64,000 nucleotides of DNA from Deltaproteobacteria bacterium (GCA_026417175.1 JAOADT010000001.1:38918-102917); one strand, 5' to 3'. Positions 9,028 to 38,581 are shown, numbered from the stretch's first letter. The notes: generated by a model not told the origin, from the sequence alone. A program made the numbers and translations.

Positions 9028-9042
9028 TTATCCCTCCTTTTT

Positions 9043-9333: not shown

Positions 9334-9360
9334 CTTACCACTCTCCTTTCTTGATTTTTA

Positions 9361-9387: not shown

Positions 9388-9391
9388 CACA

Positions 9392-9420
9392 AATATAATG
9401 ACGGTCTAATTTTTTGTCAA
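9392..9420 (-). promoter_or_regulatory. Sigma-70-type promoter of groES-groEL
   Basis: On the minus strand: TTGACA (9420..9415), 17-nt spacer, TATATT (9397..9392). Confidence 0.6.
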
Positions 9421-9429
9421 GGGGCCGAC

Positions 9430-11142: not shown

Positions 11143-11144
11143 TT

Positions 11145-12135: not shown

Positions 12136-12411
12136 TCAACCGAACCTGTATTGGACTCCAAACTCTCCACCCGGGTACCCCCAAGATATTGCTCCTCGTA
12201 CACATGCAATCATGCATGTACCACACTCTAAGCATCCCGCATACTCAACAGTCATTTCATTTGTCTCCTCTATCAGCTTGTACAGATTTCCTGGACACAC
12301 GTTAAGGCAAAACCTCATTTTGCATGTTTTGCATATGGTATTGTTTATTGTTATATGACTTACTTTGTCATTTTTGATTATATTCTTTGCAAGCTTTTCT
12401 TCGGTTTTCAT
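12136..12411 (-). CDS. FixX-type ferredoxin-like protein
   Basis: The ATG at 12411 overlaps the fixC stop (ATGA). C-terminus CKTCKMRFCLNVCP...CLECGTCMIAC...WGYP. The longer ORF-track start at 12471 lies inside fixC. Confidence 0.8.
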   Translation of the reverse strand: MKTEEKLAKNIIKNDKVSHITINNTICKTCKMRFCLNVCPGNLYKLIEETNEMTVEYAGCLECGTCMIACVRGAISWGYPGGEFGVQYRFG

Positions 12412-14674: not shown

Positions 14675-14688
14675 CTTTCCACCTCTCT

Positions 14689-15465: not shown

Positions 15466-15481
15466 TTTCAACCTCCTTACC

Positions 15482-16630
15482 TTAAAGTTTTCCGATTATA
15501 CTCCTTCCGATAAAATCCTTCAACACCTCATGTGTACCGCCTCCGTAAAGGAGGAATCTCGCATCTCTGAAGTATCTTTGAGGATTATATTCGTAAGCAA
15601 AAGCGTTAGCTCCGTAAATCCTTGTTACCTCATCTACTACTTTTAAACATACCTCAGTCGCGAACATCTTCGCTTCAGCTGCTATTGTTCTTGCGTCCAT
15701 TCTGTTTTCAAGAAGCCACGCTCCGTAATATACCATAAGTTTTGCTGCGTTCATTAATGTATCCATCTCTGCGAACTTCTCCCTTATGAGCTGAAAGTTC
15801 CCGATAGGTTGACCAAAAGCTATTCTTTTGCGGGCGAATTCCAGACCTTCTTCATAAGCGGCTCTGGCCAACCCTAACGCCATTGCACCTGTCATAAGTC
15901 TCACTTCATCAAGTATCTCACCCACATACTGTACCCCTTTTCCAAGTTCCTCACCCAGAAAGTTTTCATCAGGTACCCATACATTGTCGAAAATGAGCTC
16001 ACCTGTCACTGTACCTCTACAGCCCAGTTTACGTATAATCTGTCCGCTCGAAAACCCTGGAGTACCTTTTTCAACCAAGAAGAAGTTTAATCCTTTGAGA
16101 CCCAATGATGGATCAACAGTTGCGAGCACTGTACAAAAATCACATATAGGTCCGTTTGTTATCCACATTTTTGTACCGTTTATTCTCCATCCATCGCCGT
16201 CTTTGACTGCCCTAGTTCTTGTTGAACCGAGGTCAGATCCTGATTGGTCTTCAGTAAAACAGATAGTTGCTATCTTCTCACCTCTCATTGCCGGATATAG
16301 ACATCTCTCTTTTATAGCATCATTCCCAAATCTATAGATAAAATAAGTTCCCATTAAAATGTTCATTATTACACTTTGGGCAAAACCGACAGAGCCTCTA
16401 GTAATCTCCTCATAGAATATCATACACATTACCTTGTCCGCATTCATGCCGCCTATCTCTTCAGGGTATCTTAGTCCCAAATACCCAAGCTTAGAAAACT
16501 CTCGCCATAGGTCCCAGGGAAATTCGTCTTTTTCATCTATATCTTTGGCCTTTGGTATTATCATTTTGTTAACAGTGTCTCTTATGGTTTTTCTAAAAAA
16601 TTCTTGCTCCTCTGTTAACTTGAAGTCCAT
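15482..16630 (-). CDS. Acyl-CoA dehydrogenase
   Basis: 382 aa. LTEEQ..., ...GSDLGS..., WITNG and a C-terminal ..LYGGGTHEV.. typical of the ACAD family. Confidence 0.9.
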   Translation of the reverse strand: MDFKLTEEQEFFRKTIRDTVNKMIIPKAKDIDEKDEFPWDLWREFSKLGYLGLRYPEEIGGMNADKVMCMIFYEEITRGSVGFAQSVIMNILMGTYFIYRFGNDAIKERCLYPAMRGEKIATICFTEDQSGSDLGSTRTRAVKDGDGWRINGTKMWITNGPICDFCTVLATVDPSLGLKGLNFFLVEKGTPGFSSGQIIRKLGCRGTVTGELIFDNVWVPDENFLGEELGKGVQYVGEILDEVRLMTGAMALGLARAAYEEGLEFARKRIAFGQPIGNFQLIREKFAEMDTLMNAAKLMVYYGAWLLENRMDARTIAAEAKMFATEVCLKVVDEVTRIYGANAFAYEYNPQRYFRDARFLLYGGGTHEVLKDFIGRSIIGKL

Positions 16631-23078: not shown

Positions 23079-25100
23079 ATGATAACATCTATTATGGTCC
23101 AGGATTTTCTCGAGTCTATTCTTGTAGTATTTGGAATATCTGCTTCCATAATTTACTTACTCGGAAAAATAAAACTTCCCTCCATAGTTGGTTTCCTCTT
23201 AGCCGGAACCATTATAGGACCTTATGGGATGGGGCTTATTCAAAGCTTAAAAGACGTTGAGATGATCGCAGAAATTGGAATTATCCTTCTTATGTTCACA
23301 ATAGGTGTTGAATTCTCACTGACTAAACTTTACGGGCTGAAGAAAGAAGTGTTCTTGTTTGGTCCCTTACAAATACTGCTTACAACAACTATCTCTGCCG
23401 TTTTGGCACACATCATTTTAGATATCCATTTGAGAAACGCCACTTTCTATGGGTTTGTCGTGAGTCTAAGTAGCACTGCTATTGTCATGAAACTTTTAGC
23501 TGAGAAAGGCGAGCTCAATACAAGACACGGGAAGATATGTGTGGGCATTTTATTATTTCAAGACATATGCGTAATTCCTTTGATGTTGTTGACTAGGCTT
23601 ATTTCAACTCATAACGAACAACCTTTAGGAGATTATCTGGTGGTTCTTCTTAAGTCTTTTTTGATACTCTTTGTAGTTTTTCTATTCTCTAGGACGGCCA
23701 TTCCCTATTTTCTTCATGAAATTGTCAAAACAAAAATTAGGGAGCTTTTTATCCTCGTAACAATCTTTGTTTGTCTTGGTACAGCCTATGTAACCTCCAA
23801 GTTGGGTCTTTCTTTAGCCCTTGGAGCCTTTCTTGCAGGAGTTATAATATCAGAATCGGAATACTCATCTCAGGCGCTCTCCGATATTTTGCCTTTTAAA
23901 GAAATATTTTCGGGCATATTCTTCATTTCTATTGGCATGTTACTGGATCTTGAGTTTTTAAAACTAAGGATCACAGATGAATTCGTGCTTATCTTGACAG
24001 TTATTTTTATTAAGATTCTGTCAGTTGTTTTTGCAGTTTACCCCTTTGTAAAATCCTTAAAAATTTCTCTTAAGACAGGTTTTTCTCTCGCTCAGATAGG
24101 AGAATTTTCATTCATCCTTTCTTTTGCCGGAAGGGCGCTAGGTCTTATAGATTCACAAGAATACCAGAGCTTTATTGCAATCACCGTTGCTTCCATGTTT
24201 ATAACACCTGCAATATTGAGATACTCTCCTAAAATAGTTGATGAACTGGTAAAATTGAAGCTTTTCCACCATTTTGAAAAGGTGACCAGAATAAAGGACA
24301 GTGAAATCTCTGTGAGAAAAATGAATCACGTCATAATAATCGGATTCGGGCTAAATGGTAGAAATCTTGCCAGGGTACTTAAAGATTCCGGAATAAGTTA
24401 TGTAATCCTGGATCTAAATCCGGACACTGTTAGAAAATCAAAAAGAAAAGGGGAACCTATATACTATGGAGATGGAACAAGTTCAGAAATCCTTCGCAAG
24501 CTTGGAATCCTTTGGGCAAAGATACTTGTCGTAGCCATCTCTGATCCCACATCCACAAAAAGGATTGTGGAAATGGCTAGGACCGAAAATCCCAGAATTC
24601 ACATAATTGTTAGAACCCGTTACGTCTCAGATATAGACGAGCTTTTGAATGTTGGTGCGAACGAGGTAATCCCTGAAGAATTCGAAACATCTCTTGAGAT
24701 ATTTGGACGGGTTTTACATCATTTTGGAGTTCCGAGAAACAAGATACTGGAAACAATAGACCGTATAAGACAAGAGGGATACAAAACTCTACTTTTAGAT
24801 ACACCCCTAAAAACAAGGGTCGGCTTGGAGTGCACAATGGTGGAAGGTCTTGAAATGGATAGCTACATTGTGGAAAAGGATTCCTGGTTAAAGGGAAAAT
24901 CGATAAAGGCCATAAATCTCAGGGCAAAAACAGGAGCAACAATTATCGCCGTAAAAAGGGGTGAAGAAAACATTCTAAATCCAGACCCAGACCTTGTTTT
25001 GAATGAGGGTGACATAGTCGTTTATTTAGGTACAAAAGAACAAGTTACACTAACCTTCCATTTTTTAAGTGGAAGGCCCTCCGGACAGAGCCTGAGTTAA
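23079..25100 (+). CDS. CPA2-family monovalent cation:proton antiporter (Kef-type) with C-terminal RCK (TrkA-N / TrkA-C) domains
   Basis: 673 aa. About 12 hydrophobic segments, then VIIIGFGLNGRNLARVL (a GxGxxG NAD fold) and a TrkA-C-like C-terminus. Confidence 0.85.
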   Translation: MITSIMVQDFLESILVVFGISASIIYLLGKIKLPSIVGFLLAGTIIGPYGMGLIQSLKDVEMIAEIGIILLMFTIGVEFSLTKLYGLKKEVFLFGPLQILLTTTISAVLAHIILDIHLRNATFYGFVVSLSSTAIVMKLLAEKGELNTRHGKICVGILLFQDICVIPLMLLTRLISTHNEQPLGDYLVVLLKSFLILFVVFLFSRTAIPYFLHEIVKTKIRELFILVTIFVCLGTAYVTSKLGLSLALGAFLAGVIISESEYSSQALSDILPFKEIFSGIFFISIGMLLDLEFLKLRITDEFVLILTVIFIKILSVVFAVYPFVKSLKISLKTGFSLAQIGEFSFILSFAGRALGLIDSQEYQSFIAITVASMFITPAILRYSPKIVDELVKLKLFHHFEKVTRIKDSEISVRKMNHVIIIGFGLNGRNLARVLKDSGISYVILDLNPDTVRKSKRKGEPIYYGDGTSSEILRKLGILWAKILVVAISDPTSTKRIVEMARTENPRIHIIVRTRYVSDIDELLNVGANEVIPEEFETSLEIFGRVLHHFGVPRNKILETIDRIRQEGYKTLLLDTPLKTRVGLECTMVEGLEMDSYIVEKDSWLKGKSIKAINLRAKTGATIIAVKRGEENILNPDPDLVLNEGDIVVYLGTKEQVTLTFHFLSGRPSGQSLS

Positions 25101-25661
25101 GAGGTATAGCGCCTGGGCGTAAGAAGTCGGACAGAGCGGGAAGCATTCTTTACACTTATCACATTCTTTTAAAGCGATCTCAGGGATAAAACTTATCTCT
25201 CTTTTCACCCCGCTTTGAACAAACGATATGGCATATTTTTTCTTGACTTCAGAGCAGTATCTAACACATAGACCACACAGGATGCAGAATATAGGTTCCT
25301 TCCCAAATTTTTCTTCTTTTGCACCATATTCTTCTTTTAGTTTGATAAGTTCGGGAGATCCTGGCGCACGTGCAAGAAGAAGCTCCACTATAATCCGCCT
25401 TATTTTTTCAACCTCTGGACTCCTTGTTTTCACAACAAGCCCTTCTTCAACTGGGTAAAGACAAGAGACAACATAATTTTTTCTTCCCCTACTTTCAATT
25501 TCTACTGTGCATAGTCTGCAACCGCCATAGGGCTCAAGATCTTTATGGTAGCAAAGTGTGGGAATATCTATACCTTCCCTTAAAGCTACCTGAAGGATGG
25601 TCATACCTTTTTCTGCCTTACATTCCTTCCCGTCTATGGTTATATTCACTACATCTGACAT
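25065..25661 (-). CDS. [2Fe-2S]/[4Fe-4S] protein resembling the NuoG N-terminus (BamI-like)
   Basis: Start MSDVVNITIDGKE at 25661, 2 nt after the NuoF-like stop. Motifs CYHKDLEPYGGCRLCTVEI, CILCGLCVRYC and CDKCKECFPLCP. Confidence 0.8.
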   Translation of the reverse strand: MSDVVNITIDGKECKAEKGMTILQVALREGIDIPTLCYHKDLEPYGGCRLCTVEIESRGRKNYVVSCLYPVEEGLVVKTRSPEVEKIRRIIVELLLARAPGSPELIKLKEEYGAKEEKFGKEPIFCILCGLCVRYCSEVKKKYAISFVQSGVKREISFIPEIALKECDKCKECFPLCPTSYAQALYLLTQALSGGPST

Positions 25662-25663
25662 CT

Positions 25664-27313
25664 TTACTTCTCCTTGACTAATCGTGATTCGAACTCTTTC
25701 CAAAAGTATTTCAAAGCACTCTCCAAGGGAGATGAAGCTGTTCTTCCCAATGCGCACAGAGAAGCCTCTTTTTGAACATCGCAGATTTCTCTTATCGTTT
25801 CCACATCCTGATACGTGCCGGAACCGTCCTTTATCTTTTTGAGGAGTTTTCTTATCTGTCTTATACCCTCCCTACAAGGGACACACTTACCACATGATTC
25901 TGTTGATAGAAAATCCAGAAAATAAGAGACTAGTTCAAGCATATCATCTTTTTCGTCAAGAACAAGTAACCCACCAGCGCCAATAGGTGCTCCTAATTTG
26001 GCACATGCGTCAAAATCTAAAGGGGTATCTATTAGTTCCTTCGGAATTGATCCACCCATGGCAGACCCAAAATGAACAGCCTTTAAATCATTTCCGTTTC
26101 CAGTTCCTCCACCTAAGTCGAATACAATCTCCCTCAGACTCATCCCAAAAGGTACCTCAATCACTCCGGCATTTTTTATTCTTCCCGAAAGCGATATAAG
26201 CTTTGTCCCCTTGCTCCTCTCGGTGCCTATTTTCGAGTACCATTCAGCCCCATTTTCTATAATGAGGGGTACATTGGCCCATGTTTCCACGTTATTTAAA
26301 TTACTAGGTTTTTCGTAGATCCCGCTTACCGATGTCCTTATGTATTTGGGTCTAGGCTCAGGAATCTTTCCTTCGATCGACCTCATTAAAGCACTAGATT
26401 CACCGCTAACGAATATGCCTATATCCAGGTGAATCTCCACATCGAAGTCGAACCCGCTTCCCAATATGTTCTTTCCAATAAAACCATATTCTCTCGCTTT
26501 GCTAATAGCTGTTTCTATATTTTTTAATAAGTCTGGTGCATCATGCCTGGTATAGATAAATCCTTGTCTGGCCCCTATGGCATAAGCCCCAATTATTAGA
26601 CCTTCGAGAACTATGTGGGGATTGCCCCCGAGGATTGCTCTATCCATGTATGCACCAGGTTCACCCTCATGTCCATTAACGATCACATATTTGATGTCAC
26701 TTTTTGCGTTTCTTGTAGTCTCCCACTTCTGACCAGCAGGAAAGCCGCCACCTCCTCTCCCTCTTAAATTGGACTTCTTGATCTCCTCTAAAACATCAGT
26801 TGGAGACATTTGGGTTAGCGCCTTTACTAAAGCAGAATAACCTCCAAGTGCTATGTAATCGTCAATACTTTGGGGATCAATCTTTGTGTTATATCCGAGG
26901 ATAAGCCTAGTCTGTCTATTATAGAACGGTATATCCTTAAGGTGAGGGGTCTTCCCTACTTTTTCATCTTCGTAGACAAGTCTGTCAACAATTCTATTTC
27001 TCAATATGGTTTCCTCAATTATTTCTGTTGCATCTTTTTCTTTCACTTTAAGGTAACATATCTCTTCAGGATAAATGATTATACTTGGCCCCCAGGAACA
27101 CATCCCATGACATCCCGTGAGTTTGACCTTGATTTTTTCTTCAAGACCCTTTTTACCAAGCTCATCCTTTAGTGCGCTTGCAATCTTTTTTCCATCTTTA
27201 CTTGAACATCCTCCCCCGCCACAAACTGATATTATCCGTTCCGAAGAAGCCATTATAGACTGTACCCTATTTTTCAATTTTAAAAAGTCTTCATATGAGC
27301 TTATTCTCTGCAT
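25664..27313 (-). CDS. NuoF-like NAD(P)H-binding FMN/Fe-S flavoprotein with an N-terminal thioredoxin-like [2Fe-2S] domain (BamH-like)
   Basis: 549 aa. GRGGGGFPAGQKW (FMN site) and ESCGKCVPCREG ([4Fe-4S]). N-terminal CGGGGCSS...CHGMCSWGP. Confidence 0.9.
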   Translation of the reverse strand: MQRISSYEDFLKLKNRVQSIMASSERIISVCGGGGCSSKDGKKIASALKDELGKKGLEEKIKVKLTGCHGMCSWGPSIIIYPEEICYLKVKEKDATEIIEETILRNRIVDRLVYEDEKVGKTPHLKDIPFYNRQTRLILGYNTKIDPQSIDDYIALGGYSALVKALTQMSPTDVLEEIKKSNLRGRGGGGFPAGQKWETTRNAKSDIKYVIVNGHEGEPGAYMDRAILGGNPHIVLEGLIIGAYAIGARQGFIYTRHDAPDLLKNIETAISKAREYGFIGKNILGSGFDFDVEIHLDIGIFVSGESSALMRSIEGKIPEPRPKYIRTSVSGIYEKPSNLNNVETWANVPLIIENGAEWYSKIGTERSKGTKLISLSGRIKNAGVIEVPFGMSLREIVFDLGGGTGNGNDLKAVHFGSAMGGSIPKELIDTPLDFDACAKLGAPIGAGGLLVLDEKDDMLELVSYFLDFLSTESCGKCVPCREGIRQIRKLLKKIKDGSGTYQDVETIREICDVQKEASLCALGRTASSPLESALKYFWKEFESRLVKEK

Positions 27314-27324
27314 AGCCTTTCCTT

Positions 27325-27771
27325 TTATCCAATTTTCTTAAGTATTCCTTCTATATCATCAGGTTTTACATTTCCATATACTTCACCATCTATCTCTATT
27401 TCCGGCCCAGAAGCACAGCGTCCGGAACAGGAGGATAATTCTAAGCTAAACTTCATGTCAGGAGTTGAATCACCTACTTTAATCCCAAGGAGGTTTTCAA
27501 GTTTTTCTACAACTTCCCTTCCACCCCTTATATAGCAGGACACCCCCGAACAAACTTTTATCACATGCTCAGCTTTGGGTTTCAGGCTAAACGTTTTGTA
27601 AAAAGTTGCTATTCGCATCACTTCATTCACTGGAACAGACAATCTCTTACTGAGATAAAAAATAGATTCTCTAGGTATATACCCCTTTTCGTGTTGAACG
27701 TCCATTAACATCTCGATGAGAAAATTTCTTCTTCTGGAATACTTCTCTATGATGCTTTCCAAATAATCCAT
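27325..27771 (-). CDS. NuoE-like thioredoxin-fold [2Fe-2S] protein (BamG-like)
   Basis: 148 aa. CSGVSCYIRGG ... CSGRCASGPEIEIDG. Confidence 0.88.
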   Translation of the reverse strand: MDYLESIIEKYSRRRNFLIEMLMDVQHEKGYIPRESIFYLSKRLSVPVNEVMRIATFYKTFSLKPKAEHVIKVCSGVSCYIRGGREVVEKLENLLGIKVGDSTPDMKFSLELSSCSGRCASGPEIEIDGEVYGNVKPDDIEGILKKIG

Positions 27772-27774
27772 AGA

Positions 27775-28527
27775 TCAACTCCCTACTTGTGTCTCTAGTT
27801 TCACAAATCCTTCTAATTCAAGATTTTTTAATGCTTTAAGAATCTCCTTTTCGTCAATGCCTACCCTTTTTGACAATTCTCCGTATTCTGAAATTCCTTT
27901 TCTTTTAGCATCAACTATAAGCCCCATAGTTATTTTATCGAAAATCATTTTTTCGATAATACTATTTATCTCAGGGCTTTCAAAATATTCGTCAATTTTT
28001 CCGATATTATTCCCTTGGAACCTGAGTCTCCCTCTTTCTACTAGTTTGATGTACGGAAGGAGATTCAGTACCACACCTAGCCTCTCATTCATAACTTCAT
28101 CTGGTAAACCTTCTTTCTTTCCTATGGGTCCAAGCTCTTTTATCTGCCGTATGAAATCTTGCATCACTTCTGCAAATCTAACACCTTCTGCAGATGAGAG
28201 AAATTCCATTCTGATTCTCTTTTTATCAATACCAATAAATCCGAAAATCTTTTTTAAAAGAATAATCATTCCATATGCGTGAATATTACCTTCCGTTGTG
28301 TAATGGCATTCTCCTGGAAGACATCCCACTACTATTATTCCATCCACTTTTTCTTTAAATGAATTAATCACGAAGGCAGGATCAACTCGTCCCGTACACA
28401 TAACACGAATCAGTCTTATATCTGGGGGGTATTGCAGTCTGGAAACTCCAGCCAGGTCAGCCGCTCCGTACCCTCACCAAAAACAAACAAAACCGATAAT
28501 CTTTGGCATATACTCAAAGGTATTCAT
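27775..28527 (-). CDS. MvhD-like (methyl-viologen-reducing hydrogenase delta subunit family) selenoprotein (BamF-like), with a C-terminal extension
   Basis: The track ORF starts at 28401 (MCTGRVDP), but the frame stays open upstream through a single TGA (28474..28476) to the ATG at 28527, which has AGGAGG 4 nt upstream. The result is [48 protein letters not shown], matching the MvhD N-terminal consensus C-x-W-C-x-Y-x-G-A-D-L-A-G with Sec at the second Cys. Confidence 0.85.
28439..28451 (-). promoter_or_regulatory. SECIS-like stem-loop downstream of UGA 28474..28476
   Basis: On the minus strand, CTGGA-GTT-TCCAG is 22 nt after the UGA. It is flanked by a possible outer helix GGGTA (28473..28469) / TACCC (28431..28427). 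Confidence 0.4.
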
Positions 28528-28535
28528 AGATCCTC

Positions 28536-31500
28536 CTAATCTTTTTCTCTTAAAGCTTCAATACCTTCTCTTATCTGAGTGTAAAGCTGGGTATCTGTAA
28601 AGTGCTTAAGCTGTATCGCATTTGTCGGGCATTTAGCGTTGCAAAGTCCATCTCCTTTACAGAGCACTGGATTAACTCTAGCTTTTTTTCCTCTTTCAGT
28701 TTCGTAAAACTCGATAGCGTCATATTTACAGACCGAAATACATGCGCGACAAGATACGCACTTTTCTTCATCGACTTCACATATGGCTCCCGAAGCCAAA
28801 ACGTAGTCTTTAGAAAGAAGTGTTAAAGCTCTACCTGCCGCTCCGTAAGCTTGATTTATCGCTTCATTTACATGTTTTGGATAGTGTGCCATTCCGCACA
28901 GAAACACTCCTTCTGCAGAAAAGTCTACAGGACGTAATTTCACATGGGCTTCTTGGAAGAAACCGTCAGGGTTGATCGGAACTTTGAAGAACTTTGAAAT
29001 CTGGGTATTATTTCTATGAGGAATCACAGCTGAGGCCAATACTAACATGTCAGCTTCGATTTCTAGTTCCTTCTTTATAACTCTGTCTACCACTTTTACG
29101 ATAAAACTTTCCTTTCCCTTGGACCCTTTAAATTCTACAGTAGGAGGAATGTCTAGGTCGTAACGGATGAAACGTACTTCTTTGTCCTGGGCTTTAAAAT
29201 AATAATCTTCGTTGAAACCATAGGTCCTCATGTCTCTGAAAAGTATGTATATATCCTTCTCAGGGTATTTCTCTTTTAGCTTCAGGGCATTTTTTACTGA
29301 ATGGTTGCAACATATTCTACTGCAGTAATTTCTTTCCTCGTTTCTTGATCCAACGCATTGGATCATTACAATGGTCCCTACATTTTTGATCCTTTCATCT
29401 TCCCTAGCTAGAAGTTCTTCGAATTCAAAATTTGTTACAACAAAATTGTTCTTTCCATACATATATTCTTTCGGTTTATATTCTTCTGCTCCTACCGCTA
29501 CTATTGCAACTCCGTGCTTAATTGTACTAATTCCGTCCCTTGTTCTTATCCTTGTGGAAAAGTTCCCCACGTATCCTGTGACATCGAGTATCTCCGAATT
29601 TGTCCTCACATGGATGTTAGGATGCGAAAGCACCTGGCCTATAAGTTCGTCTGTAAAAGAGCGAACATCAAACCCATCAAGAGTGAAATAAAGTTTCTTG
29701 GCATTTCCTCCAAGAGTCTCCTCTTTTTCCACAAGGTATACCTCGTAACCTTGTCTTGCTATACTTAAGGCAGAGACCATACCGGCTATTCCACCGCCAA
29801 CAACGAGTACTCTTTTATCTATGGGAAGTCTCAATTCCTCAAGAGGGGCTAGATACACAGCTCTAGCTACAGCCATTCTGACTAAATCCTTTGCTTTCTT
29901 CGTTGCACGCTCCTTTTCCCTTGGATGCACCCAAGAGCAATGTTCCCTTATATTTGCCATTTCAAAGTAATACTGGTTAATTCCGCCTTCTCTTAGGGTA
30001 TCTCTGAAAAGCGGTTCATGGGTCCTTGGAGTGCAGGCCGCAACAACAACTCTATTCAATCTTTTCTCCTTTATCGCATCTGCTATCTGTTTTGCCGCAT
30101 CTGTAGAGCATGCAAATATTGACTCCTGTGCATGTACCACGTATTTAAGTCTTGAAGCAAATCTTACCACCTCTGGTACGTTTACAACCCTTCCTATGTT
30201 TGCTCCGCAATGACATACAAATACTCCCACACGAGGTTCTTCTTGAGTTGTATCCCTTTCTTCTGGGTAAAGTCTCTCCTTAGTCAGTAGATTTCTACGT
30301 GTGCCGAGTATTTCCCCGCACTGACTTGCTGCACCGCTTGCAGATACAACAGATTCAGGTATATCCATGGGACCTTGAAACGCACCACTCACAAATATTC
30401 CGGGTCTTGAAGTTTTTATAGGATTGGAAGGAGAAAATTTTGAAAACCCGTACCCATTTAATTCGATGCCAAATTTCTGAGCAAGTTCTGTATATCCACT
30501 TGGTGGCTTGAGCCCAACAGAAAGTACCACCATATCAAAATCCTCTTCTTTTACCCCGTCCTCTGTAGCATATCTTATCCTAAGATTCTTGGTGTCTGGA
30601 ATCTCACCCTCCAACGAGACATAACTTCTTATGAATCTTACCCCTTTTAAATTCGATGCTCTTTGGTAAAACCTTTCAAAGTCTTTTCCAAATGACCTTA
30701 TATCGTTGTGGAATACCACACATTCGCAGTCAGGTTCATGCTCCTTTGTAAGAATCACTTGCTTCTGTGTATAGGCGCAACACACGGAGGAACAATAGGG
30801 AGAGCCAGGTTCTTTTAATGTTCTAGATCCTACACACTGAATCCATGCCACTTTCTTTGGATGCCTTTTGTCAGACTTTCTTAGGATCTCTCCTTCGTAT
30901 GGACCGGTAGAGCAGAGTAATCTTTCGTAGTCAAGGCTTGTCACGACGTTATCGTAAACCCCGTAGCCAAATTCAGTTGTAAGTGAAGGATCAAACACTT
31001 CAAAACCAGGAGCTAGAATAATGGCTCCAACTTCTATCTCTTCCCTTTTCGGTTTTTGAAAAAGATCTATAGCCTTGTTCTTGCAAACACCCGCGCATAT
31101 GGAGCACTTCTCTCCACTTAGATACAGACAGTTATCCCTGTTTATGTAAGCAACAAGTGGAACGGCTTGAGAAAAATACACATGAATAGCCTTATTCTTT
31201 GAAAGCTTCTGATTGTATTCGTCCTCAACTTTTATTGGGCAGAACTCGGTACACATACCGCATCCGGTACATCTTTCCTCATCAATGTATCGCGGTTTTC
31301 TTATAAGGCTCACTCTGAACTCGGGAAATTCGCCATCAACCTTCTCTACTTCCGTATATGTGAGAATCTTAATGTTTGGGTGTCTACTACACTCGACCAG
31401 TTTCGGTGACTCTATACACATGGAACAGTCATTTGTGGGAAAGGTCTTATCAAGCTGTGCCATGTGACCACCTATGCCTGGAGCACGGTCAACAAGATAA

Positions 31501-31646
31501 ACTTTGAAACCAGAAGAGGCAAGATCTAAAGACGCTTGTATACCACTTATTCCTCCACCGACGACCATTATGTCGCCAACTTCTTTTTTTTCGAAATCCC
31601 TTATAAGTTGCAAAATTTTTTCTTTAGTGATTACCTCTCCGTTCAC
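28536..31646 (-). CDS. Double HdrA-like FAD/Fe-S oxidoreductase (BamE-like), all-Cys version
   Basis: 1036 aa. Two dinucleotide folds ([32 protein letters not shown]), several ferredoxin-type Cys clusters and a C-terminal 2x[4Fe-4S] motif (CVSCRACISVC, CKGDGLCNAKCP). Confidence 0.9.
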   Translation of the reverse strand: MNGEVITKEKILQLIRDFEKKEVGDIMVVGGGISGIQASLDLASSGFKVYLVDRAPGIGGHMAQLDKTFPTNDCSMCIESPKLVECSRHPNIKILTYTEVEKVDGEFPEFRVSLIRKPRYIDEERCTGCGMCTEFCPIKVEDEYNQKLSKNKAIHVYFSQAVPLVAYINRDNCLYLSGEKCSICAGVCKNKAIDLFQKPKREEIEVGAIILAPGFEVFDPSLTTEFGYGVYDNVVTSLDYERLLCSTGPYEGEILRKSDKRHPKKVAWIQCVGSRTLKEPGSPYCSSVCCAYTQKQVILTKEHEPDCECVVFHNDIRSFGKDFERFYQRASNLKGVRFIRSYVSLEGEIPDTKNLRIRYATEDGVKEEDFDMVVLSVGLKPPSGYTELAQKFGIELNGYGFSKFSPSNPIKTSRPGIFVSGAFQGPMDIPESVVSASGAASQCGEILGTRRNLLTKERLYPEERDTTQEEPRVGVFVCHCGANIGRVVNVPEVVRFASRLKYVVHAQESIFACSTDAAKQIADAIKEKRLNRVVVAACTPRTHEPLFRDTLREGGINQYYFEMANIREHCSWVHPREKERATKKAKDLVRMAVARAVYLAPLEELRLPIDKRVLVVGGGIAGMVSALSIARQGYEVYLVEKEETLGGNAKKLYFTLDGFDVRSFTDELIGQVLSHPNIHVRTNSEILDVTGYVGNFSTRIRTRDGISTIKHGVAIVAVGAEEYKPKEYMYGKNNFVVTNFEFEELLAREDERIKNVGTIVMIQCVGSRNEERNYCSRICCNHSVKNALKLKEKYPEKDIYILFRDMRTYGFNEDYYFKAQDKEVRFIRYDLDIPPTVEFKGSKGKESFIVKVVDRVIKKELEIEADMLVLASAVIPHRNNTQISKFFKVPINPDGFFQEAHVKLRPVDFSAEGVFLCGMAHYPKHVNEAINQAYGAAGRALTLLSKDYVLASGAICEVDEEKCVSCRACISVCKYDAIEFYETERGKKARVNPVLCKGDGLCNAKCPTNAIQLKHFTDTQLYTQIREGIEALREKD

Positions 31647-31667
31647 GTCTCTTTCCTCTTTTCTTTT

Positions 31668-32819
31668 TTAAGTTACTTCGTTTATTAACTCTGCCAAGTC
31701 CTTTATACGAAGCTTATCTTCGTAACCCATGATTAGCTTACTGTCTTCCAGCGCTGTTATGCAGTAAGGACAACTAGTCACAAGTTCCATAGCACCCAAT
31801 TTCACCGCGTCTTCAACTCTTATGTTAGAAAACCTTTCGTGTTTCTCGGTTTCGGCCCAAACTCTACCCCCTCCCATTCCACAACACAAGCTTGCGAGTC
31901 TATTCTCTGGAAGCTCCAGCATATTGACCCCATTTATTGACCTGAGTACCTCTCTAGGTTTTTCAAATATGTTACTGTGTCTTCCAAGGTAACAGGGATC
32001 GTGATAAGCGATATTTGCCACATAGTCTCTGCTGAGTTTTAATCTCTTGGACTCTATGAGTTCTTTCAAATACTCGGATATGTGTACAACCTCAAAATTT
32101 GCACCGAAATTAGGATATTCATTTTTGAAAGTGTAATAGCAATGTGGTGATGAGACGACTATTTTTCTTACCCCGAAGTCAATAAACTTTTTTAGATTTT
32201 CTTTGGCAAGCTTCTTAAAAACTTCTTCATTTCCCGTTTTCCTTATGCTTTCCCCACAACAACTTTCAGCCTCACCGAGAATCCCAAAATTCACCTGTGC
32301 CTTTTGTAACAGCTGTACAGTTGCTCTCGCAACGTTTCTGAGTCTCGGATCGTAGCACATATAACAGCATGTGAAATAGAGAACCTCCATCTTCTCCTCA
32401 AAAATCTTAACGTTTAGTCCTTCTGCCCACTTCGCTCTCTCCTTTGGGTCCTCATTAAATGGATTACCTTTAGAGATGAGGTAAGTAGCTATCTGTCTGT
32501 AAGTTTTTGTAGAGCTTGGAAATACATTGTAAGCAGTTGCCATTCTTCTTATGGCCACTATGTCATCAATCTGTCTCACATCCCTCGGACACAAAAGGAC
32601 GCATCTCCCACACGTGGTACATCTCCAAATGTCCTCTTTTTCAATCTCTGTGAGACCAAATACCGCATCTCTTATCAATCTTCTCATACTAAATACCCTA
32701 ACGCGATTCCAAGGACATACCGCATCACATTTACCGCACTGATAACAGTACTTTACCCTTTCCCCACCGTACTGTTTTATCTCATCAATTACCTCTTTAA
32801 AAGGCGCCACAATTTCCAT
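31668..32819 (-). CDS. HdrD-like Fe-S / CCG-domain protein (BamD-like)
   Basis: 383 aa. CYQCGKCDAVCP and CTTCGRCVLLCP, then the CCG motifs SCCGESIRK and LCCGMGGG. Confidence 0.85.
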   Translation of the reverse strand: MEIVAPFKEVIDEIKQYGGERVKYCYQCGKCDAVCPWNRVRVFSMRRLIRDAVFGLTEIEKEDIWRCTTCGRCVLLCPRDVRQIDDIVAIRRMATAYNVFPSSTKTYRQIATYLISKGNPFNEDPKERAKWAEGLNVKIFEEKMEVLYFTCCYMCYDPRLRNVARATVQLLQKAQVNFGILGEAESCCGESIRKTGNEEVFKKLAKENLKKFIDFGVRKIVVSSPHCYYTFKNEYPNFGANFEVVHISEYLKELIESKRLKLSRDYVANIAYHDPCYLGRHSNIFEKPREVLRSINGVNMLELPENRLASLCCGMGGGRVWAETEKHERFSNIRVEDAVKLGAMELVTSCPYCITALEDSKLIMGYEDKLRIKDLAELINEVT

Positions 32820-32831
32820 GTCTAACCCTCA

Positions 32832-33371
32832 TTACAACTCTTTCGCTACTTTTGCAATTGTATCCACGACTTTCTCAAGACCATGTCTTTTTAACAGAGT
32901 AGCTACAGATACTTGGAGTTCGTCGGTCGTATGTGGTTCCACCTCTACTTCCCTCTCGATGTATGTAAGGGCTCCCGAATGACATTCCTTTACACACATC
33001 GGAATGTCCGAATCTTCTCCTTCACATGCATCGCATTTAAATGGAAGACCAGACTCCGGATCTTTGAACGCATCCCTTGAGGGACAGGCTGCTGGACAGA
33101 ATTCGCATGTACCAAATTCTCGACCCCGGATAGTAAAAGAGTTTCTGGCGTTGCATTCAGCTTCAGTGTACTGACCTGCTCTGATCGCCACGTAGTTGTC
33201 CGCAAACTCATCGATTATCACCCGAATCCTCGATTTTGCAGGGTTCACACTTGAATATTTGGGGTTCGCGTGGACCTGTGAACATACAATCTCGCAGCAT
33301 CTACAACCATTGCACTTGTCCATATCAAATCTTATTTCCTTTATCTTCTTTTTTACTTTTTGTCCTTCCAT
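32832..33371 (-). CDS. 4Fe-4S dicluster protein (BamC-like)
   Basis: 179 aa. CNGCRCCEIVC, CEFCPAACP and CDACEGE..CVKEC. Confidence 0.8.
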   Translation of the reverse strand: MEGQKVKKKIKEIRFDMDKCNGCRCCEIVCSQVHANPKYSSVNPAKSRIRVIIDEFADNYVAIRAGQYTEAECNARNSFTIRGREFGTCEFCPAACPSRDAFKDPESGLPFKCDACEGEDSDIPMCVKECHSGALTYIEREVEVEPHTTDELQVSVATLLKRHGLEKVVDTIAKVAKEL

Positions 33372-33388
33372 GTCTTACGCTCCTTTAC

Positions 33389-35353
33389 CTATATTCCCCA
33401 AGGATACTTGTCTTTGTATTTTTCGTAGACATTTGGGACCTCGTCATTACCAGTCAAAATTCCCCTTTTCAAGAAATCTTCTGCCACGAAATCCAGATCC
33501 AGTTTTTTTAAAGTCTCAACCGTGGGAATGCCTTGCTTTGTCCATCCTTGATACTCGTAATAGCAGTCAAGAAGGATTTGTTCGTACTCGTGGTTTCTCA
33601 CTGCCCAATGGTCTTCCGGCGGTTTCTCATCCTCTCTCCTCATACCTCTTCGCACATTCAGTGCCCGAACGAGATTTCTATTTCTCTTATAAACTGTCCA
33701 AAGTTTTTCTTCATCGAACTCCACTCCTGTGATCACAGTTATAAACTCTGGGATGTTATGTATGTGGTATACGGTTCTTCCTCCGAATTGGCCCCTAAAT
33801 GAGGAGACAAAACCGCACAACCCGGTTGCATCATCAATGTAATGCATAGCCTCATTCCACTCTGTAATTGCACATGCCATTTCGATTGTAACCATTTCTC
33901 TTTTTTCCCACTCCAAGAACCATTTCTTAAATCTCTCATCCTTTGCAGCGATCCATCCCCTTACGAATTCTTCCCTCTCCTCTCTGGTAGGAAGGGGATC
34001 CTGAGGAAAAGATCCCTCTATCTGGGTTATATTCATCTTCTCCCCTGTGGCTATCATTAAGAAGTACGGAGGATTAAGTTTCCCTAGTTTTATCGGAACC
34101 TGTTCAAACTTCTTTGTTGTGTTATGATCGAAAGCCTCGGCTCCTTTTCCTATCTTACGGGCAGCCCAGTATACGCCATCTGCAAGAATATCCCCAATAC
34201 CTTCTCTTTTCACAATCTTGTCCAAGAAGTAAAAAAATCGACCTTTAATATCGTTTGGCATGCCGGGCAGATCGTTGTCTGTGAGTATCCCTGCTTCGTA
34301 AAGTTCCAGCGCAAACGCTATAACTTGAGGTGTTGTGTAAGAATCGAGGCCTAGATTTTGGGCTACACCTAAGATATCGTAACTGAAATCAAGTTCCTGA
34401 AAGGCTGCCATATGGTAAGTATCTTTGCCAAAACATTTGTAAGAAAATCTCTTTCTTCCCGGCCAAGATATAACATTATGACATCTCTTTGGACAATTAA
34501 AACAACCTGTTTGTCTATCTAAGTGATCGTATTTTATACGTGTAAATCTTTCTTCAATTTCAGGTGTCCAGTAACCTTTCCTTCTCACTCTTGCATTTCC
34601 CCAAGCAAAATTGTCATGATGAAAGCTATCGTCTTCGTCTACCGCCATCCAGTCACCAACGTGTGGGTTTTCAGCGATTTCTTTCCTGAGTCTATTTCCT
34701 AGTTCAAATGCTTTTTGAGGGTTTGCTACGTACAAATCCTTAGTTCCCTTTATGGCTATTGCCTTTACCCTCTTGTCACCCATTACAGCACCTGCCCCAC
34801 GCGCTGCACTCGCATGGCTGTGATCTATAGAAGCATAAAATACTCGGTTCTCCCCAGCAGGTCCGATTGCTGCAATTTGGAATCTATGCCCGAGTTCTTT
34901 TTTTAGTACTTCCTGTGTGTCATATGTGCCAAGACCTTTTAGATGACTCGCATCTCTTATCTCAACCTTATCGTCGCAGATATAGATGTACACTAACTTG
35001 TCAGCCTTTCCTTTTATTATGATCTTATCATAACCTGCGAATTTCATCTCCGGAGCGAAATAACTTCCCATCATAGTGTGTGCGTGGAGATTAGTTTGCG
35101 GGGAGAATGTATTTACTATCGTTCTATTGGCTCCTGGGATAGGAGTCCCACAGAAAAGACCTGCGCTGAATATAAGTAAATTATCTGGGGAAAAGGGTTC
35201 CACCTCTGGAGGAACTCTGTCCCATAGAATTCTATCCGCAGATCCCTGACCCCCAACGTAAAGCTCGAGCCATCTAGGATCAGATTCCACCTTTTCTATA
35301 TTTCCTGTCGAGAGATCAATCTCTAAAAAATATCCAGTTTCTCCGTATCTCAT
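33389..35353 (-). CDS. AOR-family tungsto/molybdopterin enzyme (BamB-like)
   Basis: 654 aa. MRYGETGYFLEIDLSTGNIEK..., GENRV, GAVMGDK. The AAGGAG RBS lies in the 13-nt gap after the IclR gene. Confidence 0.88.
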   Translation of the reverse strand: MRYGETGYFLEIDLSTGNIEKVESDPRWLELYVGGQGSADRILWDRVPPEVEPFSPDNLLIFSAGLFCGTPIPGANRTIVNTFSPQTNLHAHTMMGSYFAPEMKFAGYDKIIIKGKADKLVYIYICDDKVEIRDASHLKGLGTYDTQEVLKKELGHRFQIAAIGPAGENRVFYASIDHSHASAARGAGAVMGDKRVKAIAIKGTKDLYVANPQKAFELGNRLRKEIAENPHVGDWMAVDEDDSFHHDNFAWGNARVRRKGYWTPEIEERFTRIKYDHLDRQTGCFNCPKRCHNVISWPGRKRFSYKCFGKDTYHMAAFQELDFSYDILGVAQNLGLDSYTTPQVIAFALELYEAGILTDNDLPGMPNDIKGRFFYFLDKIVKREGIGDILADGVYWAARKIGKGAEAFDHNTTKKFEQVPIKLGKLNPPYFLMIATGEKMNITQIEGSFPQDPLPTREEREEFVRGWIAAKDERFKKWFLEWEKREMVTIEMACAITEWNEAMHYIDDATGLCGFVSSFRGQFGGRTVYHIHNIPEFITVITGVEFDEEKLWTVYKRNRNLVRALNVRRGMRREDEKPPEDHWAVRNHEYEQILLDCYYEYQGWTKQGIPTVETLKKLDLDFVAEDFLKRGILTGNDEVPNVYEKYKDKYPWGI

Positions 35354-35366
35354 ACTTTCACTCCTT

Positions 35367-36134
35367 TTAAACTTTTTGCGTATTTACTGCATTTATTTCT
35401 TTTGCAACTGATAAAAGCATTTTAACAATCTCATCTATCTTCTCATTTGGTAGCTGGCTTTTCAATCCGACAACCCATATAGCCGACTGAACATTTTTAC
35501 TTCCGGTCTCTATAGGTACCGAAAGTCCTATCATACCTTCGATGTATTCTTCAAAGTCGTAAGCGATGCCTTCTTTTTTTATCCGGAGTAGTTCGCTTTT
35601 GAACTTGTCCTTATCGATTATGGTTTTCTCCGTGTACTTTCTCAATTCTGTTTTTTCTAAGAGTTCCTCTATCTTATCTTCCGACAACTGGGAAAGCATA
35701 GCTTTTATCCCTGCACCTGCAAAAGGTGGCATAGTCAGCCCTATATCTGAACTGAGCTTGATACCATGATCCGCCTCAACCTTATCCACCAGTATGGCCT
35801 GGGCCCCTGACCGGACACCTAAAAATACCGAAAGACCACTCTCATTTTTTATGAACTCTAGGTATGGATGGGCAAGCTGAATCAGGTTTGACTTTCTGCT
35901 TGCCATATTAGCTAGCGTGTAAAAAAGTGTTCCCAGTGAGAATCTTCCAGAAGGTAAACAATTAAGTACGTGAAGTGCAGCTAATGTGTAAATTATGTTA
36001 TATACTGTGCTTTTATTAATACCGAGTTTCTTTGAAATATCAGATATACCTAAAGGTTCCTCACTTTTAGCTAGCGCTTCAAGGATCTTGAAACATTTTT
36101 CAATTGCTGGAACTTTTTTGAATTTGTTCTCCAT
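35367..36134 (-). CDS. IclR-family transcriptional regulator
   Basis: 255 aa. N-terminal wHTH (IEKCFKILEALAKSEEPLGISDISKKLGINKSTVYNIIYTL) and a C-terminal IclR effector domain. Confidence 0.88.
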   Translation of the reverse strand: MENKFKKVPAIEKCFKILEALAKSEEPLGISDISKKLGINKSTVYNIIYTLAALHVLNCLPSGRFSLGTLFYTLANMASRKSNLIQLAHPYLEFIKNESGLSVFLGVRSGAQAILVDKVEADHGIKLSSDIGLTMPPFAGAGIKAMLSQLSEDKIEELLEKTELRKYTEKTIIDKDKFKSELLRIKKEGIAYDFEEYIEGMIGLSVPIETGSKNVQSAIWVVGLKSQLPNEKIDEIVKMLLSVAKEINAVNTQKV

Positions 36135-36148
36135 ATGGAACAGTATGT

Positions 36149-36177
36149 TTTATATAATAAACCAAAGGCATTGTCAA
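36149..36177 (-). promoter_or_regulatory. Sigma-70-type promoter of the IclR gene (very short, SD-less leader)
   Basis: On the minus strand: TTGACA (36177..36172), 17 nt, TATAAA (36154..36149). Only 14 nt separate the -10 from the ATG at 36134, and there is no purine-rich SD. Confidence 0.45.
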
Positions 36178-36212: not shown

Positions 36213-37985
36213 TCAGAGGCTTTTCAAAACTTCCTCTAACATCCTTTCGAGTTTTGCCTCCTCCGTCTCATCCGCATATTTAGGAGGTAAAACATCTGGA
36301 AAAAACTGGAATATTCCTTTTAGGATCACCTCTGCATGAGGAGGACACCCGGGAAGATGAATACCTTTATCTTTATTATGAAGCTGACACATCCCCATAA
36401 ATATGTTAGTTTCATTGGGATTTATCCCTTTTCCCTCGTACGGACCGAGATATATATTTATCGGTTTTTCAAAGGGTCTATCTATGAGGAGTTTTTCAGG
36501 TTCTTTTGGATCTGGTCTTCTTAATTTATGAACCACAAAATGGAGATATCCTCTACATCCGGAACATGCCCCGTCGTAGTGAATCTTAAGGTTCATACCT
36601 CCTGAGAGATTAATCTCGGGCAATTTGAAGGGGCTTCTCACTTCTTCAACAGAAGCTCCGACAATCTTTATTTTTTCAGACTCTATCGGACCAAAACCCT
36701 GAATGTAAGCCAAAAGCACAGGCGGAGAATCCTTTGGATCAAGTCCCATTATCCTCATACAAGTCGCGTCCACAGCTACAGGGTTTTCCCCGGCTATTAA
36801 AAGATTCATGACTTTAGGTATACCGGAGACCGGTCCAAAGTCCTCCTGTCCTACAAGGCCATCGATAATAGTGAGTTTTGGTTTAACAAGATGATGAATA
36901 TTTACCAAATTCTGCCAAAGACCAAAGAAATGGGTCATGTATTTTTCAAGTGGTGGCATAGTGCCCTGTAGGTTTTTTACTGCCAGAGACACAACAGCGG
37001 CAAAGTGAAGCTTCATCACAGGAAGGCTAATTATCACATCAGCATCCAACAACGTTTTTGGAACTTTTCGAGAGGCCATACGTTTTTTGTAAGGAACGGG
37101 TAGCTCTACTGTTTCATCCGTGTTAAGATCGACTAGTTTAACTTTTCCGGGGAAAAGCTCCTCCAATTTATCGTACCCATAGATTTTGAACATTTTTGTC
37201 GTGGCGCTTCTATTTATGGAAGATCCTTCTGCCACTATTATCTTTGAAGCCGTGGGAAGAAGAAATGTTATCAAAGCTTTAACGAGTTTCAAGTCAGTCA
37301 CAACGCCACCTTTGTATTGACCCTCTAGCATTCCATGATCAGCAACAATATTAGGTTTTAAAACAACAGTTTGGCCTTTTTTTACATACTTTCTTATCCC
37401 ACCGAGTTTTTCAAAAAGATCTTTAACTGCCTCGTATATATCTTCCTCGGACTGCGCCGGGTTTACCTTCTGGATAACTACTGTTTCTGTCTTTCTGTAT
37501 GGCCTTATCTGTTTAAATTCTTTCAATCGGTCGAAATAGACCACGGTACTTAATTCAAGTTTATCTCTTTTTAACTCACCATCGATTATTTTCCTAAATG
37601 GGCGAAATCCGTATTCTAAAAGTAAGTTGTTTTTTTTAACGTCATTCTCATGTATGGTTGCGGACAGGAGACTATGTTCAGCAATTAGTCTATCAAAAGC
37701 ACTAAAAATTAAGTTTTTAGGATCATTACTTTCTGATACCCATATCTCCTCAATGTTGCTATTTCCCACATCAAGTATGATGAAACCAAAATCATCTTTC
37801 CCTTTCTTTATCTTGTAAACGGTAATGTCTTTACTTTTCGTCCACTTTGCCCATAGATAGTCAACGTAGTCCTCAGATATTTCTGGGATTTTAGAGTAAT
37901 AATCGAAAAGTGCTTTTTTAATTCTGCCTGTTAAATTTGTCTTTTTTAATGAAAGGTCTTGCATGCTCGAATCTCCTTCACTCAT
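36213..37985 (-). CDS. DUF362 domain protein with an N-terminal GNAT-like domain and a C-terminal Cys cluster
   Basis: 590 aa. The central GQTVVLKPNIVADHG...VAEGSS...VMKLH region is typical of DUF362. The first roughly 150 aa have a GNAT-like pattern (weak call). C-terminal CSGCRGY...GMCQ...GCPPH. Confidence 0.6.
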   Translation of the reverse strand: MSEGDSSMQDLSLKKTNLTGRIKKALFDYYSKIPEISEDYVDYLWAKWTKSKDITVYKIKKGKDDFGFIILDVGNSNIEEIWVSESNDPKNLIFSAFDRLIAEHSLLSATIHENDVKKNNLLLEYGFRPFRKIIDGELKRDKLELSTVVYFDRLKEFKQIRPYRKTETVVIQKVNPAQSEEDIYEAVKDLFEKLGGIRKYVKKGQTVVLKPNIVADHGMLEGQYKGGVVTDLKLVKALITFLLPTASKIIVAEGSSINRSATTKMFKIYGYDKLEELFPGKVKLVDLNTDETVELPVPYKKRMASRKVPKTLLDADVIISLPVMKLHFAAVVSLAVKNLQGTMPPLEKYMTHFFGLWQNLVNIHHLVKPKLTIIDGLVGQEDFGPVSGIPKVMNLLIAGENPVAVDATCMRIMGLDPKDSPPVLLAYIQGFGPIESEKIKIVGASVEEVRSPFKLPEINLSGGMNLKIHYDGACSGCRGYLHFVVHKLRRPDPKEPEKLLIDRPFEKPINIYLGPYEGKGINPNETNIFMGMCQLHNKDKGIHLPGCPPHAEVILKGIFQFFPDVLPPKYADETEEAKLERMLEEVLKSL

Positions 37986-38581
37986 TTTTTATTCTTTTCT
38001 GCTCTAAAACTGCTCATTAGTTCATACTCTGATGAGATATATGGCATGGGGTCGACAAGTTTGATTATAGCATCCTCATTAATCAAATTCCAGTCAAGCC
38101 GCTGCGTAGCTTTACCAATTACTCTACCAATTGAAATATGGATGTGAGGGAAAATACCATTTTTTACATTTTGAGAGATGACGCCTAGAATTTGACCTTC
38201 TTTTAATTCCTTTCCTTCCTTTATATCTACATCTAAATCCAGATGGCCATATGCCCACAAAAGATCGGGGTGCGAAAAAACGAATAATGACTTTCCGAGG
38301 TAGTCGTCCACAACCGAAACGACGTATCCAGAAAACAGCGAAGGCACAAACATCCCTGGCTTTATCCTATCTACTTTCTTTACTTCTGTCCTGTAAAAGC
38401 AGAGGTCAACACCTTGATGAGGTTTTGTTCTTTGCTTTCCTTCATTCCACCATTTTTTTTGACTTTCAAAAAGCATTCCTGGATAAAAAACCCAGTTCCT
38501 AAATGAACTAAATTTGATCCCGTTCGACTCAAAAAAAAGTCTGGTAAAATCACTTTCAGCCTTTTTCATGGATACTATCAT
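37982..38581 (-). CDS. M23 (LytM)-family metallopeptidase-like protein without a signal peptide
   Basis: 199 aa. HQGVD (HxxxD) and PHIHISIG (HxH) motifs. No N-terminal hydrophobic segment. Its TGA overlaps the ATG of the downstream DUF362 gene (ATGA at 37982..37985). Confidence 0.6.
   Translation of the reverse strand: MIVSMKKAESDFTRLFFESNGIKFSSFRNWVFYPGMLFESQKKWWNEGKQRTKPHQGVDLCFYRTEVKKVDRIKPGMFVPSLFSGYVVSVVDDYLGKSLFVFSHPDLLWAYGHLDLDVDIKEGKELKEGQILGVISQNVKNGIFPHIHISIGRVIGKATQRLDWNLINEDAIIKLVDPMPYISSEYELMSSFRAEKNKK

Follow-up and report, generated by a model that had tools for sequence, protein, structure and literature searches.

The window analysed here, a stretch of 64,000 nucleotides (nt) from Deltaproteobacteria bacterium (GCA_026417175.1, JAOADT010000001.1:38918-102917), carries a gene cluster that resembles bamBCDEFGHI, the genes for the tungsten-dependent class II benzoyl-coenzyme A (CoA) reductase. 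It raises the question of whether the cluster encodes that enzyme or a relative with another substrate and another electron input. The bamB gene serves as a marker for anaerobic aromatic degradation, and no tungsten enzyme other than class II benzoyl-CoA reductase is known to reduce an aromatic ring. The cluster consists of nine co-directional open reading frames (ORFs) on the minus strand (25065-36134), eight structural genes and one gene for an IclR-type regulator. The products of the structural genes are referred to as BamB' to BamI'. From the comparisons taken together, this operon probably encodes a tungsten, selenium, iron-sulfur and flavin complex of class II benzoyl-CoA reductase type under IclR-type control, acting as a paralogous aryl-CoA dearomatising reductase with NADH as the only electron input. 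The system is of a known kind, a variant of a known machine.

All eight subunit families (BamB-, C-, D-, E-, F-, G-, H- and I-like) are present and intact within 25065-35353. The intergenic gaps, in the order B' to I', are 17, 12, 21, 8, 3, 11 and 2 nt as calculated from the coordinates, and the IclR gene (35367-36134) ends 13 nt before bamB'. The positions of the eight ORFs and their spacing of 2-21 nt, as given in the initial annotation, are reproduced here on the minus strand, and its bamBCDEFGHI-like gene order and domain inventory agree with the Pfam and NCBIfam profiles. The operon structure is deduced from gene spacing alone; scans for promoters and terminators found no more sites than in shuffled sequence. 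The operon ends in a 36-nt overlap (25065-25100) between the 3' ends of bamI' and of a convergent kefC-like gene for K+ efflux (23079-25100), a junction at which no terminator-like site was detected.

BamB' (33389-35353, minus strand; Pfam AFOR_N and AFOR_C) is the tungsten-pterin catalytic subunit, of the AOR family. It matches the structure of Geobacter metallireducens BamB (PDB 4z3w_A) with 776 bits and 58% identity, and the next-best structure is Pyrococcus AOR, at 225 bits. BamC' (32832-33371, minus strand), the three-[4Fe-4S] electron-transfer subunit, matches BamC (4z3w_E) with 192 bits over residues 4-177. Both proteins have 179 residues, and the 13 cysteines of BamC' are enough for three [4Fe-4S] clusters. 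Judged by these alignments, BamB' and BamC' are unambiguous homologues of BamB and BamC, and the assignment of the cluster as bamBCDEFGHI-like is right at the family level, with BamB' far closer to BamB than to AOR.

According to a review, the tungsten in BamB has a protein cysteine, Cys322, as its fifth ligand, a feature specific to the BamB and YdhV clades. Glu251, His255, Glu257 and His260 are Zn-site/proton-relay residues that are called invariant in BamB. Just two residues of the benzoyl-CoA pocket are polar, Glu251 being one of them. The initial annotation proposed checking such residues against the BamBC structure, and the outcome is divided: the equivalents of Cys322 and His260 are kept in BamB', while those of Glu251, His255 and Glu257 are not. 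The cysteine lies in the motif YKCF, aligned with MKC322F of BamB. The catalytic His260 is the sole survivor of the other four, as His255 is replaced by Glu and Glu257 by Asp. The counterpart of Glu251 is Trp in the MAFFT alignment, Met in a gapless alignment, or absent; in the phmmer alignment, Glu251 is inside a target-only insertion that has no counterpart in BamB'. The loop beside the active site is 11-12 residues shorter in BamB' than in characterised BamB.

The 120 best database matches to each of the two BamB paralogues in the window (see below for the second) were compared, and these sequences resolve cleanly into two groups. The group of BamB' (to be referred to as the prime group, n = 121) has a mean within-group identity of 80%. 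It carries the tungsten-ligating cysteine in all 121 members and W, E, D and H at positions 251, 255, 257 and 260, each in at least 118 of the 121. In the canonical-type group (n = 122), E251 is found in 120 sequences, H255 in 93, and E257 and H260 in all 122. The mean identity between the two groups is 57%. The altered loop is, from this comparison, a trait of a large conserved sub-clade and not a quirk of a single sequence. It points to another proton path, another substrate preference (substituted benzoyl-CoA or a related aryl-CoA), or both. Because the loss of Glu251 is fixed and canonical BamB frequently co-occurs, the sub-clade does not appear to be simply redundant.

A scan of species-representative genomes found 196 stretches with relatives of BamB', and 80 loci from the scan were examined as related loci. 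The best match in the scan is 74% identical to BamB', and an exact look-up of the BamB' protein gave no record. The closest sequences belong to metagenome-assembled genomes (MAGs) of Thermodesulfobacteriota/Desulfobacterota, and matches are also found in Bacillota, Chloroflexota/Dehalococcoidia, Binatia, and many MAGs labelled Betaproteobacteria and Alphaproteobacteria. The whole B'-I' set is inside the fetched stretch in 23 of the 80 loci. The closest relative contig (L001) encodes a BamB' with 92% identity and has the same flanking hslUV, xerC, DUF362, IclR and kefC genes. Recent horizontal acquisition of the cluster was considered and rejected: its GC content equals that of the surroundings, and it is set among housekeeping genes that are ordered as in L001.

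In seven loci (L037, L038, L040, L050, L052, L056 and L075), a canonical-type BamB is located divergently beside BamB', with a single DEFGH(I) set and an HD-domain gene. The presence of both BamB types side by side in these loci, and of both in the window, fits distinct roles rather than redundancy. These seven loci come from MAGs labelled Burkholderiales, some of them mislabelled Enterobacteriaceae. Because the enzyme is ascribed to strict anaerobes, class-II-type genes would not be expected in Betaproteobacteria, where Sterolibacterium and Sulfuritalea MAGs carry them too. Elsewhere, canonical-type BamBC cores are paired with BamDEF only, or with an Mvh-type NiFe hydrogenase. One locus (L007, 10001-16296) has canonical-type BamBC together with a FlpD-ferredoxin fusion, the small and large subunits of a NiFe hydrogenase and an MTHFR-like gene, and lacks an HdrA-like gene. 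In this arrangement the BamBC core may be linked to hydrogen.

The second bam cluster of the window, of canonical type, occupies its left end (1-6961, minus strand) in the order bamB (4994-6961), bamC (4430-4981), bamD (3275-4426), fdhD (2469-3278) and bamE (from 2408), which runs past the window edge. BamB of this cluster matches 4z3w_A with 1007 bits and keeps Glu251, His255, Glu257 and His260. As a counterpart of the G. metallireducens genes, the nine-gene cluster therefore stands as a homologue, and the closest orthologue is the left paralogue (1007 versus 776 bits). Two in-frame TGA codons of the left bamE, 2226-2228 (CSIU) and 1017-1019 (VCYUG), fall at conserved cysteine positions, both of which are Cys in BamE'. 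In a relative of the left cluster (L002), the genes continue with a BamF fused to a 2x[4Fe-4S] ferredoxin domain, and bamGHI are absent. A sulfurtransferase gene, fdhD, is located between bamD and bamE in several prime-clade loci as well (L022, L047, L070, L077 and L085), a placement that hints at a role in tungsten-cofactor maturation.

For BamD to BamI, residues were compared by way of the structures of HdrA, MvhD and HydB and the residue numbering of a recent preprint (10.64898/2026.04.10.717634). BamD' (31668-32819, minus strand; Pfam 4Fe-4S dicluster and two CCG domains) is HdrD/HdrBC-like and would be the exit for high-potential electrons. BamD' and the left-cluster BamD are collinear and share their cysteine pattern. 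Recent duplication of bamD' from the left cluster was rejected, as the protein is only about 60% identical to the L002 orthologue of the left-cluster BamD. BamE' (28536-31646, minus strand; 1036 residues) is a fused double HdrA-like flavoprotein with two FAD domains. It matches HdrA with 651 bits in three stretches, giving the permuted, duplicated alignment described for BamE. In G. metallireducens BamE, Cys59 and Cys62 form a disulfide pair and Lys280 is located at N5 of the bifurcating FAD (10.64898/2026.04.10.717634). Cys74, Cys77 and Lys295 of BamE' correspond to these residues at a constant offset of 15, and Lys295 is also aligned with Lys409 of HdrA.

BamF' (27775-28527, minus strand; 250 residues) is an MvhD-like adaptor with a FlpD domain at residues 10-133 (Pfam). 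It is about 110 residues longer than MvhD, having a C-terminal extension as reported for BamF. One in-frame TGA is found at 28474-28476, and the ORF reads through only if this codon is decoded. In the alignment with MvhD (148 bits), the TGA in CFW-U-GYGAAD is opposite the second Cys of the MvhD motif CNWCTYGGAD, and its position is that of selenocysteine (Sec) 19 of G. metallireducens BamF (10.64898/2026.04.10.717634). The motif was compared in 49 instances, 48 of them from related loci and one from the window. TGA stands at this codon in 25 and TGC or TGT in the other 24, and the flanking coding sequence is conserved on either side. In a search for a selenocysteine insertion sequence (SECIS), the 62 nt that follow the UGA did not fold better than shuffled sequences (z = 0.88), and Rfam gave zero matches across the whole window. 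Because the SECIS fold and Rfam searches were null, the selenocysteine call rests on the TGA/TGC comparison, which gives good to strong evidence for selenocysteine at this position. The description of BamF' as an MvhD-like selenoprotein in the initial annotation is supported by this alternation at a conserved cysteine position.

BamG' (27325-27771; Pfam 2Fe-2S_thioredx, 153 bits), BamH' (25664-27313; N-terminal 2Fe-2S and NuoF 4Fe-4S in Pfam) and BamI' (25065-25661; Pfam Fer2_4 and Fer4_7, with partial NCBIfam matches to HoxU and NuoG), all on the minus strand, make up the input module. BamG' is a NuoE/HydC-like [2Fe-2S] subunit, BamH' a NuoF/HydB-like NADH/flavin mononucleotide (FMN) subunit, and BamI' resembles the N-terminal regions of NuoG and HydA, with one [2Fe-2S] and two [4Fe-4S] clusters. 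HydB-type structures align with BamH' to about its fifth-last residue and then extend for another 70-80 residues. BamH' stops about 5 residues after the NuoF-type 4Fe-4S region, without a C-terminal 2x[4Fe-4S] domain. In BamH of the characterised complex, this domain holds clusters H1 and H2, the entry point of reduced ferredoxin (10.64898/2026.04.10.717634). Schut et al. place the C-terminal two-[4Fe-4S] domain in the invariant bifurcating core, find it absent from non-bifurcating, NADH-only homologues, and give A202 and M204 as Bfu signature residues. BamH' keeps the N-terminal 2Fe-2S cysteine pattern and has PGAYMD as its version of the signature PGA(F/Y)MD. It falls outside the Bfu (HydABC-type) core, defined by a BfuB with all clusters, as the C-terminal pair is absent, and its sequence resembles that of a Bfu-type subunit from which the ferredoxin domain has been lost.

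The short form is found in other loci as well. The tail of BamH has 0-18 residues in 13 related loci and the window, and 75-105 residues with two CxxCxxCxxxC motifs in 12 loci. Two further loci (L003, 18214-21339; L016, 9937-13062) encode a fusion protein of 1041 residues that joins BamH to a GltD-like NAD(P)H-binding domain. Because BamH' lacks the C-terminal two-cluster domain for ferredoxin entry, we predict that the input to the complex is NADH only, without ferredoxin/NADH confurcation.

These parts are present and intact and have conserved key residues, and from homology with the structure of the G. metallireducens complex we infer the following electron path. NADH would reduce the FMN of BamH', and electrons would then pass from BamI' to the C-terminal ferredoxin domain of BamE', to the [2Fe-2S]/Sec site of BamF', and on to the bifurcating FAD of BamE'. 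The low-potential electron would move through BamC' to the tungsten cofactor of BamB' and reduce the ring of a bound aryl-CoA thioester. The high-potential electron would leave through BamD', probably to an electron-transferring flavoprotein (ETF). The potentials given for ETF and benzoyl-CoA are near +16 mV and near -620 mV, respectively (10.64898/2026.04.10.717634). The mean acceptor potential is therefore about -300 mV by our own estimate, which is not a measured value, and NADH alone would be roughly isoenergetic with the acceptors. Genes for an acyl-CoA dehydrogenase, etfB, etfA, fixC and a small fixX-like ferredoxin, in a FixABCX-type arrangement (12136-16630, minus strand), lie between the two bam clusters of the window. 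Their products are a possible high-potential acceptor for BamD', and proximity, at a distance of 8.4 kb, is the only link.

The IclR protein (minus strand; Pfam HTH_IclR and IclR_C) scores 114.9 bits against the PcaR/PcaU/PobR model TIGR02431, below its cut-off of 284.75. The regulator 13 nt upstream is present as the initial annotation had it, and it is a generic IclR protein, outside the PcaR/PcaU/PobR subfamily. Eleven related Desulfobacterota loci, L001 and 10 from the scan, also have an IclR gene immediately upstream of BamB', with identities of 43-53%, and 68% in L001. A Pfam survey of the genes around the prime-clade loci covered 131 ORFs, the first of 340. It is led by IclR (12 ORFs), followed by cytoplasmic molybdopterin oxidoreductase (7), and by AMP-dependent CoA ligase and PaaX with 5 each. 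Regulators of the IclR and PaaX types are typical of aromatic-acid catabolism, and these neighbourhoods agree with an aryl-CoA or aromatic acid as substrate. Each of the CoA ligases is of a generic type, with a score under its family cut-off.

A cytoplasmic molybdopterin oxidoreductase of about 684 residues is found near BamB' in 11 related loci (L013, 7815-9905; L023, 7638-9689; L066, 100-2142; L086, 7489-9543; and 7 more), immediately upstream in several of them, and none is found in the window. It belongs to the dimethyl sulfoxide reductase family, has an N-terminal 4Fe-4S motif, and reaches the cut-off of no named family. In the window, the same strand carries two genes upstream of IclR (36213-38581), for a 590-residue DUF362 protein and a 199-residue weakly M23-peptidase-like protein. 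The DUF362 gene is kept in L001 (74% identical) and was found in none of the 86 other loci searched. The remaining genes of the window are for housekeeping functions, pili and a TRAP transporter. The pilus genes form an unrelated chaperone-usher cluster at 50148-54043 (PapD-like chaperone, usher and SCPU-domain subunits).

What reaction does the complex catalyse? The conserved cysteine ligand, the catalytic histidine and the neighbourhoods with IclR, PaaX and CoA ligase genes argue for second-shell ring reduction of a CoA thioester. One alternative is that BamB' belongs to a redundant second isoenzyme of benzoyl-CoA reductase, with the same substrate under other conditions (such as low selenium or a different availability of electron donors). 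This we regard as unlikely, though it deserves attention. In its favour, BamB' is 58% identical to the G. metallireducens protein and retains the tungsten ligand and the catalytic histidine, and Geobacter, Desulfococcus and Desulfotomaculum offer documented cases of benzoate-induced BamB/BamC pairs and of bam clusters in duplicate. The cysteines of BamE' at the two selenocysteine (TGA) positions of the left BamE would also suit a low-selenium isoenzyme, but BamF' still requires selenium. Moreover, the Glu251 loss and the loop deletion are fixed in all 121 sequences of the prime group and absent from all 122 of the canonical-type group, which points to a functional split and not to drift.

A further proposal goes beyond a paralogous enzyme, and we hold it only tentatively. 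The BamB' sub-clade would be a distinct class of tungsten dearomatising reductases for aryl-CoA substrates other than benzoyl-CoA, and the form with the short BamH would run on NADH alone by way of one HdrA-type bifurcation, without ferredoxin confurcation. If this is true, ring reduction at about -620 mV would not depend strictly on reduced ferredoxin, and class II enzymes would accept a broader range of substrates than is now known.

A reductase or oxidase that acts at low potential on a non-aromatic substrate, with a Bam-derived scaffold wired to an Hdr/Nuo-like module, is improbable. In its favour, genes of aromatic pathways are absent from the window, CoA ligases near the related loci are only of generic acyl-CoA type, and the BamBC core is joined to quite different partner modules elsewhere. 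Against it, the cysteine ligand, which blocks first-shell tungsten chemistry, is conserved, as is His260, and the IclR and PaaX regulators point to aromatic acids.

Several observations weigh against the reading of the operon as an NADH-driven aryl-CoA dearomatising reductase. His255 is not invariant even among the canonical-type sequences, and the alignment near the deletion is ambiguous, with an adjacent acidic run, DEDD, that might substitute for Glu251. Ferredoxin could dock elsewhere on the complex or come via another protein. In L001, bamC' is followed directly by bamE' (7634-11357) and bamD' is missing, so the exit route of the high-potential electron is not fixed. A Desulfosarcina MAG (L059) has the same architecture as the window cluster, with a BamH of 547 residues, so that the purified D. 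cetonica complex could itself be an example of this type. The 25 commonest neighbour families among the 131 ORFs include no enoyl-CoA hydratase, ring hydrolase or other gene of the benzoyl-CoA pathway. As the initial annotation observed, the window itself has no gene for benzoate-CoA ligase, dienoyl-CoA hydratase, dehydrogenase or ring hydrolase. By a rough weighting, benzoyl-CoA itself comes close to an even chance of being the substrate, a substituted or otherwise different aryl-CoA has a considerable chance that is short of even, and something else has a small one.

The assignment matters beyond this locus. Environmental surveys would count the prime sub-clade as benzoyl-CoA reductase, although benzoyl-CoA is no more than a candidate substrate for it. 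A widespread variant with a lost ferredoxin-entry domain and a rebuilt relay loop offers a direct test of which parts of the mechanism are essential, and of whether paralogous BamB enzymes share out different aromatic substrates.

The initial annotation held that only BamBC had been characterised and that BamDEFGHI was hypothetical, a view that is now outdated. Purification of the whole Bam[(BC)2DEFGHI]2 complex has succeeded with two species, and its structure, solved by cryo-EM, is presented in a 2026 preprint (10.64898/2026.04.10.717634). In the mechanism described there, ferredoxin/NADH confurcation feeds HdrA-type bifurcation, and ETF is the electron acceptor of BamD in G. metallireducens. 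Reports of genomes with several BamB paralogues or several whole bam clusters go back to 2007; examples are Gmet_1802/1803 (BamB2C2), BamB1 and BamB2 of D. multivorans, and multiple copies in G. daltonii and D. gibsoniae. A complete cluster is for this reason not surprising in itself. A 2026 classification places benzoyl-CoA-reductase-like enzymes in two clades. The strictly conserved loop change of the sub-clade, and a BamH without the ferredoxin domain within a complete eight-gene cluster, are apparently not described in the literature.

The overall organization of the window cluster is that of the G. metallireducens class II complex, with the same eight subunit families in the same order. 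The tungsten-ligand cysteine, the catalytic histidine, the cysteine pair and lysine of BamE, and the Sec position and C-terminal extension (about 110 residues) of BamF are shared. On the other hand, BamB' lacks Glu251 and His255 and has the shorter loop, BamH' lacks the H1/H2 domain for ferredoxin input, and there are no adjacent genes of the benzoyl-CoA pathway. As in the documented cases of BamB paralogues, two BamB proteins with their own BamC and BamD are encoded in one genome, and one is closer to the characterised enzyme. In the window, however, it is the more divergent paralogue that carries the complete GHI module.

The likeness extends to other bifurcating systems. BamG', BamH' and BamI' are homologous to HydC, HydB and the N-terminal region of HydA, and share with the HydABC/Bfu modules the N-terminal [2Fe-2S] cluster and the PGA(F/Y)MD signature, whereas the C-terminal two-[4Fe-4S] domain is found only in the latter. 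In lacking this pair, BamH' is like the non-bifurcating, NADH-only relatives, the Syntrophomonas wolfei hydrogenase and Nqo1/NuoF. In comparison with HdrABC-MvhAGD, BamE' corresponds to HdrA and BamF' to MvhD, and BamD' has HdrC-like and HdrB-like (CCG) parts; BamD is not expected to bind heterodisulfide (10.64898/2026.04.10.717634). HdrA is duplicated and fused in the Bam complex, and the hydrogenase is absent.

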